Shown one piece after another: positions 12,805-23,046 of a stretch of DNA of 64,000 bases. The DNA is from an uncultured Parachlamydiaceae bacterium (lineage in GTDB: Bacteria; Chlamydiota; Chlamydiia; Chlamydiales; Parachlamydiaceae). The translations under genes and the position numbers were made by a program. Location of the stretch: contig CAVVXH010000010.1 in assembly GCA_963752155.1 (NCBI GenBank), positions 320,001 to 384,000 of the forward strand. The letters are read 5' to 3'. The stretch's first letter is position 1, and each line of letters starts with the position of its first letter. A model generated the notes under the pieces. The model saw nothing but the letters and a program-made list of their open reading frames with translations. It made no database searches and had not been told where the DNA came from.

Positions 12805-13742
12805 ATGAGAAAGTTATTGTTCGCGTGCAGTTTATTTATTTCACCTTATATTTTCACTGCGCAAGATCTAGTCAAAACCAGCGCTGGCGTCAAAGAGTTT
12901 TCAATTTCAAACACGATGTTTGGGTGCCCTTCGTGTATTCCCACAAAGCCATGTCCTACTATTCCTACATGTACCGCAGGCTGTACAGGAGCTTCAGGAT
13001 GTCCTTCAGATTGTCTTCCAGGGACAATAGGACCCAGGGGACCGAAAGGGCCTAGAGGTCCTAGAGGACCTAAAGGACATAATGGTCACCACGGAAGAGC
13101 AGGTGCTACAGGCCCTACAGGAGCTACAGGAGCCACCGGAGCCGCCGGAAGTACAGGGGCCACAGGGGCGACGGGATCAGTTTCTATTACAAGCGTTATT
13201 GAGGCTACGACCTTGAGCACTGCTTTTCCGGCGATTCCACCGCAAACTGTTGGCGCTGGCAGTTATGTCGCTTTTTCAAGTCCTATTTCGAGTTGCTGTC
13301 CTTCCAATGGTGTTCCTCCAACTGGTGGAATGTCATTAGTTGAATCAATTTTCGGAAGTGGAGCTTTTGATACGATTTTGTTACCGACTGAGTCAACAGA
13401 CACATACTACTTAGTTGGGTATGGAGTGGCTCCGACATATGTTACAGATTCCACATCTGGAACCGATATCATTGCTTTTGGATTGGAATTAAATGCAGCT
13501 GGATTTTCATTACCTTACACAGTTGTTGGAGTGACTCCTAATAATGCTTTTCAGTTGATAAGTTCAACGGCTATTCTTGTGAATCCTGCAAATACAGTTT
13601 CAGGAACGATTAGGATAAGAAATGAAAGTATCAATGTGGTGATCGACCCCGACTACCTCTTGCAACACCAATTGATATGAATATCAATGCTATTGCAGGT
13701 GTGAGAGGCTTTATTAATGTTGTTCAATTGAATAACGATTGA
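12805..13742 (+). CDS. Secreted collagen-like protein 1 with Cys-rich N-terminus and BclA-like C-terminal domain (frameshift near 13650)
   Basis: Signal peptide MRKLLFACSLF, CPSC...C cluster, Gly-X-Y run. The family C-terminus RGFINVVQLNND* is in another frame ending at 13742. Confidence 0.85.
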
Positions 13743-13745
13743 TAA

Positions 13746-13970
13746 CAGCTAAGAAAAAAATTGTAGCTCATCATTCCGATGTTGAGTGTATCCACGTAGC
13801 CTCCAAGTGTTCTTAACCACTGTGTGAAATCGCAATAACCAAAAAAATGCGTGATTTCAGGCAGTGGTCTAGACCACATGGAGGCTATGATGAGCTACAA
13901 TTTGCGCAATTTCTTAGCTATTTCGATTTCACACAGAAGCTTGGACTACTTGAAGGCTACAGAAATTTGC
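13746..13970. mobile_element. Palindromic element, family B copy
   Basis: AGCTAAGAAA..AATTGTAGCTCATCA ... TGATGAGCTACAATTTGCGCAATTTCTTAGCT arms; related sequences at 23700, 31900 and 59427. Confidence 0.7.
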
Positions 13971-13972
13971 CT

Positions 13973-20709: not shown

Positions 20710-20968
20710 TTTTCCTATACTTTATATCTTAATATCGCAGCATCTTCTCACCTACCAAACAACTGGTTATTTTCCAAAATATGACTTATGGGTAATAGGA
20801 TGCCCACGCGGGCCCGAAAATTAGCGGAAACTGCCGGATCACAATAATATTTCTTGCGTAAAATTTTCTTTTAGCGCATGTATTCTAACTATGTAGTAGA
20901 ATGGATTTTCATACCAGGAAGATCCCTAAACTAAGTTAAAAAAAGTGATACCGGCAAGGGGAAATGAT

Positions 20969-22018
20969 ATGAAAAAAATTTTATTCATCTGTAGCCTATT
21001 TACAGGAAGTCAAGTGTTTGCAATTGATGAAGTAAATATGGGGATTGAAGAAAAAGGCCTTAAACCTATCTGCTGCAATCCAGGTCCTACAGGACCCACA
21101 GGTCCTCAAGGCGATCAAGGCCCTCAAGGATGTCAAGGCTTGCAAGGTGATCCAGGTCACGTAGGTCCTCGTGGACTCAGGGGGGATCGAGGTCCAAAAG
21201 GTGAAAGAGGAAAGAGAGGGGAGAGAGGGCCAAGAGGATTTGCTGGTGCCACAGGAGCAGTAGGCCCTACAGGCGATACAGGAGCAACAGGGGATACCGG
21301 TCCAAGAGGCGCAACAGGTTCCACAGGGGTAAGAGGTCCTACCGGTCATACAGGTCCCACCGGTATTCTAGGGGTTACAGGTCCTACAGGAAACACAGGG
21401 CCTAGAGGACCTACAGGTCCGACCGGGCCTACAGGGGCTACAGGAGCTACTGGGGAGACTGGGCCTCAAATCTTTGATGTCATTGAAGCGACGCGATCTA
21501 CCGGAGCCACTGGAAGTACCGGAGCAACAGGTATACCCTTAGATCCAGGTGATTTTTTATTATATGATGGTCCTATAGTCAATTTAGTGAACGGAATTGA
21601 TATTCCGGCTTCAGGAGGAATGACTCTAGGACAATCTGTACCCGCGAGCGGTAATTTTGATTCGATCATTTTTCCCACTCTAACAACAGATACACTCTAT
21701 TTGGTGAATTATGGCGTTAACAGTGCTATAGTTACAGATGTTACAACGGGCCCATTTATGTTTGAATTAGTGCTAGTTCAACCTAATGCGGCACCTCCTA
21801 CGACCGTTGCTTTGCCTTATACAGAATTGTCGGTGCCAAATGAACCCGATAATACCCTATATGCCTCCTACAGCAGAACAAGCATTCTTACAGTTCCTGC
21901 CAATAGTGTTGGAGCCTATATCGCTATTCAAAGTTTAGCAACAAATCCAACGATACAACAAATAGCAGGGTTTGGTGTCCTTAACTATATTTCTGTTGTG
22001 CAGCTAAATAGCAATTAA
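20969..22018 (+). CDS. Secreted collagen-like protein 4 (BclA-like C-terminal domain)
   Basis: Start [11 protein letters not shown] after AAGGGG Shine-Dalgarno, ICCNPG, Gly-X-Y run, C-terminal [10 protein letters not shown]. Confidence 0.9.
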
Positions 22019-22047
22019 AATGTACCGGAGCATCAAGGGGAAATCAT

Positions 22048-23046
22048 ATGAGAAATTTAGTTTTTATTTGCAGCGTGCTCTTAGGAAGTCAAATTCTTGC
22101 TATTAGTAAAGTAAGTGCGTCAAATACGACTCCTTGCTCATCCTCAGTTTGCTGCAATCCTGGTCCAGCGGGCCCCATGGGGCCTAAAGGATGTAGAGGG
22201 CCTTTAGGAGCTCAAGGTCCGAAAGGAATTCAAGGTCGAGAGGGTCCTAAGGGTTCTAAAGGAAAGCGAGGAGATGAAGGAGAAAGAGGTAAAATAGGAG
22301 AGCAGGGGGCAACCGGGGTAACTGGTGCTACAGGAGCAGAGGGATTCACCGGTCCTACTGGAGAGGTTGGCCACATGGGTTTGGTAGGTCCAACAGGGCC
22401 TGTTGGAGGAATAGGCACGACAGGCCCCAGAGGGCCTACGGGGCCAACAGGGCCTAGAGGAGATACCGGACACACTGGATCTATTGGAGCAACAGGTCAC
22501 ACAGGGCTTGTGGGACCAGTTGGAGCGACTGGAGGAGGACCACAAATTAGTCAGGTTATCGAAGCCACTCGATCCGATCCCATAGGTACAAATGCAAATG
22601 GTTATTTGATTTACGATACGCCAATAGTAAACCCAGACAATGGTCTTGTAATCCCTACATCTGGGGGGATGACGTTAGCTGAATCTTCCCCTGGAATGGG
22701 TCGTTTCGATACGATTACTCTTCCGAGTTTACCTGTAGCAGAATTATATTTGGTAAGTTTTGGAGTAAACAGTGCCATTGCTTCAACTACAACTTCAGGA
22801 GTTTTTCCTTTCGTTTTAGAATTTAATGGTACACAGTTGCCTTATACCGAATTGACGGTGCCTAGAATTCCATCTCTCAGCTTGAGTCGTTACGCTATCT
22901 TCCGTAGGGTGACTATTGTCAATCAACCTGCGAATACTCCAGGAACATTGCGAATCGTGAATAAACAAACGGATACCATCGTACAGATTGGAACGCCAGC
23001 AGGCCTTTTCAATTATATCTCTGTTGTACAGCTGGTAGGGCATTGA
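22048..23046 (+). CDS. Secreted collagen-like protein 5 (BclA-like C-terminal domain)
   Basis: [12 protein letters not shown] signal, VCCNPG, Gly-X-Y run, C-terminal [10 protein letters not shown]. Confidence 0.9.

Follow-up and report, generated by a model that had tools for sequence, protein, structure and literature searches.

Among bacterial collagen fibres are the BclA-type fibres of Bacillus spores, in which an N-terminal segment docks the fibre (PMC11362473; PMC12357932), and the literature usually describes bacterial collagens as three copies of one chain. Sets of three collagen genes are known from Pasteuria ramosa, whose PCL triplets are tied to host attachment (PMC13233619; 10.1101/2025.03.22.644704), a property conferred by a Pasteuria BclA-type head (PMC10987987); in the accessible sections, this triplet organisation is called ‘unique to P. 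ramosa’ (PMC13233619, 2026) and heterotrimers are raised as a possibility only (PMC7743900). Here, we analyse a 64,000-nucleotide stretch, hereafter the window, of an uncultured Parachlamydiaceae bacterium (assembly GCA_963752155.1, contig CAVVXH010000010.1, positions 320,001 to 384,000), which carries five collagen-like genes, numbered 1 to 5, with predicted BclA-type heads. In the window and in many relatives, adjacent collagen genes have stalks of matched length, which suggests that their products form mixed-chain trimers. This matching of partner genes is new here, with the Pasteuria triplets as published precedent: our literature search found no natural bacterial heterotrimeric collagen shown in the texts available, no length-matching analysis in the accessible Pasteuria literature (McElroy et al, 2011 may discuss it) and no paper on chlamydial collagen-like proteins, which subscription journals and supplements such as envelope proteome tables may list.

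The five ORFs (open reading frames) lie on the forward strand where a preliminary description, made from the sequence alone, had placed them (Table 1). The signal peptides proposed there correspond to hydrophobic N-termini in all five (best 10-residue Kyte-Doolittle mean of 2.3–3.1, a heuristic), hence our wording ‘signal-like’. A CC(N/E)PG motif stands directly N-terminal of the stalk in genes 2–5, and gene 1 bears the larger cluster announced for it, at residues 41–70. The stalk then runs from a K/R/D/E-rich Gly-X-Y zone into a Thr-rich zone and on to (V/I)IEAT, with a head of ~165 residues in each gene. Pfam Collagen matches all five proteins (E 2e-8 to 6e-23), Thr makes up 12–17% of the stalks, and genes 2–5 align with gene 1 at 39–44% identity. 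The common C-terminal end is found in genes 2–5; in gene 1, its ...FINVVQL sits in another frame. The last four genes, described as a tandem, are indeed adjacent and co-oriented, and form two pairs (gaps of 20 and 29 bp) set apart by a longer spacer. The ‘five-gene family’ is real as to its genes and incomplete as to its members, since nine genes of the genome carry the same head: five in the window, a triplet on contig C2 and one gene on contig C5, together forming one clade (support 98).

The heads are predicted to adopt a BclA/C1q/TNF-type jelly roll. The AlphaFold2 model of the gene 3 head, built from a 34-row alignment, is all-beta with a predicted local distance difference test score (pLDDT) of 93.2 and a predicted template modelling score of 0.89; the other heads were assigned by alignment. 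Foldseek ranks F-BclA first (E 5.5e-8) and BclA next, and a wide structural search gives F-BclA at Z 17.7 and BclA at Z 16.8 (root mean square deviation 1.9 Å), followed by EDA, ExsFA and C1q domains at Z ~13–14 (next family 13.8) and by the chlamydial protein Pgp3 at Z 9.6. At the level of prediction, the jelly-roll head put forward in the preliminary description thus holds; folding full-length gene 4 from its sequence alone gave no usable model (pLDDT 35). The heads are not covered by any match in Pfam, NCBIfam or PDB sequences: PF18573 (BclA_C) gives none at E ≤ 0.1 in the five window proteins, and a narrow head profile, A3, none among PDB sequences. Look-alikes in the Atlas score 0.91–0.92, with BclA_C on 24–31% of members, and are a lead only. 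The term ‘exosporium-like’ can be kept as an analogy, not as membership, given the signal-like N-termini, the non-Bacillota host and the lack of any exosporium-leader or BclA_C match; the proteins’ NCBIfam matches are confined to three collagen families, each well short of its cut-off. Three other assignments were rejected: Scl1/Scl2 and Legionella Lcl (32–91 bits against NCBIfam cut-offs of 325–500, over the stalk region only), the Pgp3 family (no Pfam match besides Collagen, and a fold match at 10% identity) and a known phage tail-fibre family. For the last, PHROG gives no match for four of the five heads and, for the gene 2 head, nothing better than E 0.036/0.085, over a 17-aa GAT insert, and the window neighbours scanned (ptsI, kinase, MPG glycosylase and hicB) provide no prophage context.

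The stalks measure 150/150 residues in genes 2/3 and 129/126 in genes 4/5, where the CC-to-IEAT distances are 136 and 135. The C2 triplet has stalks of 163/163/161 residues with a break in register (~46 nm, using the 0.28 nm per residue that follows from 701 residues spanning 196 nm in the available part of PMC12357932), and the other same-head members of the genome have stalks of 54–68 and 120 residues. The phylum-wide sample comprised 100 regions around head matches plus the source genome, i.e. 56 genomes with 192 collagen ORFs, of which 183 were kept and nine, having no start, dropped. Counting as a block adjacent collagen genes with gaps of up to 150 bp, and as a length match an agreement within 10% or 3 aa, the 183 ORFs fall into 95 singles, 20 pairs and 16 triplets, none larger. 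Partners match in 66/68 comparisons within blocks versus 51/427 between blocks of one genome, and 34 of the 36 blocks are fully matched, one triplet measuring 1815/1817/1819 residues; the matched blocks come from 24 genomes, of which 10 have triplets. None of 20000 within-genome shuffles (18 genomes) reaches the observed match.

This matching is found between chains that have diverged. Partner heads are ~33% identical and stalk X/Y positions have a median identity of 0.34; below 25% head identity, all 15 partner comparisons match versus 9/171 among non-partners. There are 35 cases of a closest head outside the block; stalk length is nearer that of the partner in 32 of these. Identity at Gly third-codon positions is 0.314 between partners against 0.307 expected (window pairs 0.30/0.32 and 0.24/0.27): silent sites have reached saturation between partners and bear no sign of gene conversion, which was rejected, or of recent copying. 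In genome G321, the heads of four triplets cluster by gene position in a quick version of the head tree (two groups at 98, one at 86), with stalks of 51–54, 90–93, 105–111 and 111–114 residues from triplet to triplet, and two triplets of G178 show the same position grouping with differing lengths; duplicated triplets thus change length together. Partner matching, saturated silent sites and these joint shifts argue that stalk length is under joint selection within a block. Separately, a triplet in G259 (L167, contig C42) and a pair in G023 (L173, contig C34) are length-matched with visibly different heads and had been excluded from the BclA-type alignment, so that length matching may not depend on head type.

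The simplest explanation for diverged chains that keep one length, in blocks that stop at three, is a common triple helix, ABC in triplets and AAB in pairs, which we consider rather probable for the class. For the window, we lean towards mixed trimers of genes 2+3 and of genes 4+5 (AAB), which would be displayed as host-binding surface fibres of 35–42 nm. In BclA and C1q, the heads trimerise and the helix nucleates from the C-terminus. By analogy, the chlamydial chains would be exported by Sec to the periplasm through their predicted signal peptides, their heads would trimerise and nucleate the helix, and the common helix would force partners to equal length, giving pairs and triplets. The N-terminal CC motifs would then lock the three chains or tie the fibre into the disulfide-linked OmcA/OmcB-type envelope, the Thr zone may be O-glycosylated, and the diverged heads would bind host or environmental surfaces, with chain mixing multiplying the head surfaces on offer. 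The architecture and the BclA-type systems are the basis on which we infer that the proteins are exported, fold head first, are locked by disulfides and anchored through Cys, carry glycans, stand on the surface and bind hosts. Taken as a whole, the picture that we favour by a little is one of environmental chlamydiae making natural AAB/ABC heterotrimeric collagens with C1q-like heads, Sec-exported and disulfide-locked at the base, that would serve as combinatorial adhesins of elementary bodies; their pair and triplet operons would have arisen repeatedly in at least four families and were not found in the probable Chlamydiaceae.

Several points weigh against this picture. The regions are a subset of head matches chosen from tables that showed frame lengths, and related genomes are not independent. 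Two of the 36 blocks are mismatched (26/74 in G259 and 60/21 in G319), and in G130 and G330 a third gene lies 199–267 bp upstream of a pair with a stalk of 75 versus 48/45. An inclusive head-based recount, used for block sizes and total lengths only as the profile ran into stalks, gives 103 singles, 21 pairs, 17 triplets and, truncated at a contig end, one quartet (G175:C33), as well as two pairs in which a long collagen has as its partner a head that lacks a stalk; allowing gaps of at least 300 bp merges larger clusters. Partners in the source genome are sister paralogs (genes 2+3, Shimodaira–Hasegawa-like approximate likelihood ratio support 89). Inter-chain charge pairs are better in a mixed trimer for one, equal for 12 and worse for five of 18 blocks, with genes 4/5 among the worse, by a count that is crude and in which most stalks are uncharged. 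Finally, no outer-membrane barrel or glycosyltransferase gene adjoins the window genes, and the genome’s one GT92-like gene lies on another contig.

The main competing explanation, which we regard as unlikely, is that each gene makes a homotrimer and that equal length serves a side-by-side, Cys-cross-linked bundle or a nap of even height. This accounts for the matched lengths just as well, agrees with the view of bacterial collagens as homotrimers in the published texts available, and fits the charge-pair null, the one block of four and a fourth gene of 541 residues located 554 bp away in G388. It leaves unexplained the almost constant stop at three, as the 21 pairs, 17 triplets and single quartet compare with the ~14 quartets that a simple ratio gives for memoryless duplication, and the coexistence of blocks of different heights in one genome (G321, the source genome). 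Quite unlikely in our estimation is that there is no surface coat and that the trimers act, in the manner of Pgp3, as soluble C1q/TNF-like decoys or lectins set free in the inclusion or the host cell. The window proteins have no membrane anchor, lipobox or barrel and no adjoining anchor gene, Pgp3 has a TNF-like head and a PDB entry titled ‘secreted’, and many relatives have very short stalks; against release stand the nearest folds, which are spore-fibre heads, the co-location of relatives with outer-membrane barrels and glycosyltransferases, and stalks of up to 1800 residues. Least probable are ordinary homotrimeric BclA-like adhesins in tandem duplication with merely inherited length, which could account for the window by itself since its partners are close relatives, and for which between-block heads more than 50% identical also match in 8/14 cases, but which the silent sites, the matching below 25% head identity, the preference for the partner over the closest relative and the joint shifts of duplicated triplets largely refute phylum-wide.

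Mixed trimers apart, the class itself is phylum-wide; this and the matched partner stalks go beyond the preliminary description. A profile of chlamydial heads finds similar heads in 139/401 sampled genomes, including 38/46 in the window’s family, and in 0/30 of a small-genome family (f4, 1.0–1.2 Mb), probably the Chlamydiaceae; PF18573, at E ≤ 0.001, is found in 107 of the 400 phylum genomes sampled, 36 of them above the cut-off, and in 0/14 controls. Many relatives repeat the plan of signal, Cys, stalk and head: among the 183 ORFs, 168 have a hydrophobic N-terminus and 148 have Cys before the stalk. Most often directly beside them are a Cys-rich barrel of the Legionella_OMP family and IAT_beta barrels, in 16 genomes each, and GT92/GT2 glycosyltransferases. 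The Legionella_OMP-family barrel is directly downstream of a single collagen gene in 17 of 18 close cases, including one on C5 of the source genome (C5:191583-194555, L003:5584-8556), where the collagen is BclA-like with 147 triplets; this two-gene module is a candidate fibre-plus-anchor unit. In G023, two loci (L130 and L140, contigs C40 and C7) have N-terminal regions, Rhs/YD-like by our own reading of the sequence, that continue in frame into long collagen stalks bearing BclA-type heads.

A chlamydial host, as the preliminary description had assumed, agrees with the window’s GreA-fusion protein, whose closest relatives carry the label Parachlamydiaceae (80% and 70%) and which passes the NCBIfam cut-off of PRK06330, which we take to be a chlamydial family, and with an operon of omcA/omcB-like Cys-rich genes in the source genome (G000; weak PF03504 match, E 2e-4, ORFs read). 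At L119:409-2877, an omcB-like gene (607 aa) follows a pair of small Cys-rich ORFs, of 61 and 83 aa, instead of a single one. The genome also has two secretins and three further collagens with other heads: one BclA_C-like (E 4e-6), one PF18573-like (E 5e-8) and one BclB-like (TIGR03721, E 4e-22, below cut-off). The BclB-like-head collagen (L004:5796-6701, C5) bears a signal and has a similar protein in the same-genus genome G133 (L131). A GT92-like glycosyltransferase gene (C2:203065-204348), a candidate stalk glycosylator, lies ~7 kb from the collagen gene at C2:211229.

The window head subfamily looks like a lineage-specific expansion, since G133 has no match to A3 and no collagen gene in the short stretches covered around ptsI and the MPG glycosylase. 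A3 matches 2/400 genomes and 31 library representatives, four of which, judged by length, are this genome’s own; the gene 5 head retrieved only itself in a word-indexed homolog search, and a pattern scan of the genome contigs found no relative. Genes 1 and 2 are separated by a low-GC segment (13973-18111) with possibly host-directed products on the reverse strand: a 584-aa protein with a Ser/Thr kinase domain, an orphan, and an ORF that is split and contains 72-bp tandem repeats (16005-16499). Elsewhere in the window (48429-48702), 30 copies of the 9-bp unit AAGGACAGC match at 96%, and similar arrays, reading GQQ/GRQ, are found on at least eight contigs.

Gene 1 is assembled with a frameshift near 13645-13655, which places its terminal family strand in the other frame. 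A sequencing or assembly error is plausible, though unproven, since the assembly is in 22 contigs and rated 80% complete, and since the adjacent ptsI (10932-12685) is also broken here, into three ORFs with one in-frame stop and one frameshift, and is an intact 605-codon frame in G133; the ptsI break itself may be an assembly error or a pseudogene. Reads from one DNA sequencing run (0.06 share) leave the gene 1 and ptsI breaks uncovered.

Upstream of genes 2 and 4 is a TTTCTTG-N-AAATTT motif, defined post hoc from these two regions and that of the C2 triplet leader, where it also occurs; 5/1166 leader-like ORFs carry it, and it is likely a shared promoter element. Together with the hairpin in the spacer, the motif suggests that the two window pairs are separate transcription units. 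A sigma-70 scan stayed at chance level (8 versus 8.9 expected), and the upstream regions hold no strict sigma-54 or sigma-28 motif. The spacer positions 20492-20730 consist of short palindromic elements with 75–285 BLAST hits per segment in the genome, resembling miniature inverted-repeat transposable elements or repetitive extragenic palindromes.

Table 1. Collagen-like genes and associated features, in window coordinates.
Feature	Position	Strand	Description
Gene 1	12805..13680 (ORF); family C-terminal motif to stop 13742	+	Signal-like N-terminus, 7-Cys cluster
Gene 1 stalk and head	12805..13742	+	18 triplets, ~15 nm; BclA-type head (predicted)
Motif TTTCTTG-N-AAATTT	18257..18274	+	Upstream of gene 2
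Gene 2	18324..19370	+	348 aa, CCNPG, BclA-type head (predicted); partner of gene 3
Gene 2 stalk	residues 33-182	+	150 residues, two compensating imperfections, ~42 nm
Gene 3	19391..20491	+	366 aa, CCEPG, head modelled as BclA/C1q/TNF jelly roll
Gene 3 stalk	residues 56-205	+	150 residues, uninterrupted
477-bp spacer	20492..20968		Between the two pairs; inverted repeats, hairpin, pieces with hundreds of copies genome-wide
Hairpin	20662-20699		17-bp stem, inside the 477-bp spacer
Motif TTTCTTG-N-AAATTT	20850..20867	+	Upstream of gene 4
Gene 4	20969(ATG)..22018	+	349 aa, CCNPG, 129-residue stalk (~36 nm), BclA-type head (predicted); partner of gene 5
Gene 5	22048..23046	+	332 aa, CCNPG, 126-residue stalk (~35 nm), BclA-type head (predicted)

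Little is known about host attachment by environmental chlamydiae, for which a BclA-type fibre class provides a concrete candidate. Were partner chains to share one helix, the rule that prokaryotic collagens are homotrimers would fail, the unexplained Pasteuria triplets would gain a mechanism, and the heads would be natural chain-selecting modules for recombinant heterotrimeric collagen, the making of which is a standing difficulty according to the available text of a 2022 review.

Among known systems, BclA, F-BclA and L-BclA of Bacillus spores (PDB 1WCK, 9H38) resemble the window proteins in their Thr-rich Gly-X-Y stalk and C-terminal TNF/C1q-like head. The window genes differ in coming from a Gram-negative intracellular host, in bearing a CC motif and signal-like N-terminus instead of an exosporium leader or ENA hook, in heads that are 10–20% identical, with no PF18573 match, and in having partner genes with matched stalks. 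The same head fold is found behind collagen stalks in giant viruses of protists (Bodo saltans virus, Klosneuvirus and Tupanvirus; E 4e-7 to 4e-6), whose proteins are viral fibres at 15–16% identity, and phage collagen heads share it as well. Pgp3 is a trimer with a short helical neck. Its TNF-like C-terminal domain (PDB 4JDN/4JDM) is a much weaker match than BclA, and the window genes, unlike this plasmid-encoded protein, are chromosomal with long Gly-X-Y stalks. The P. ramosa PCL triplets (groups 1-2-3) are alike in being BclA-type collagen genes, co-oriented and duplicated as units; triplets of fixed type duplicated in this way are seen in G321 and G178, while the window has two sister pairs and C2 one triplet. 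Lastly, C1q and the heterotrimeric collagens of animals combine distinct chains of equal collagen length with N-terminal cysteines. The window heads resemble the gC1q-type head of complement C1q (Z ~13), and distinct chains of equal collagen length are what the chlamydial blocks contain; unlike those of C1q and animal collagens, the chlamydial chains are bacterial, Thr-rich in place of hydroxyproline-rich, and putatively heterotrimeric.

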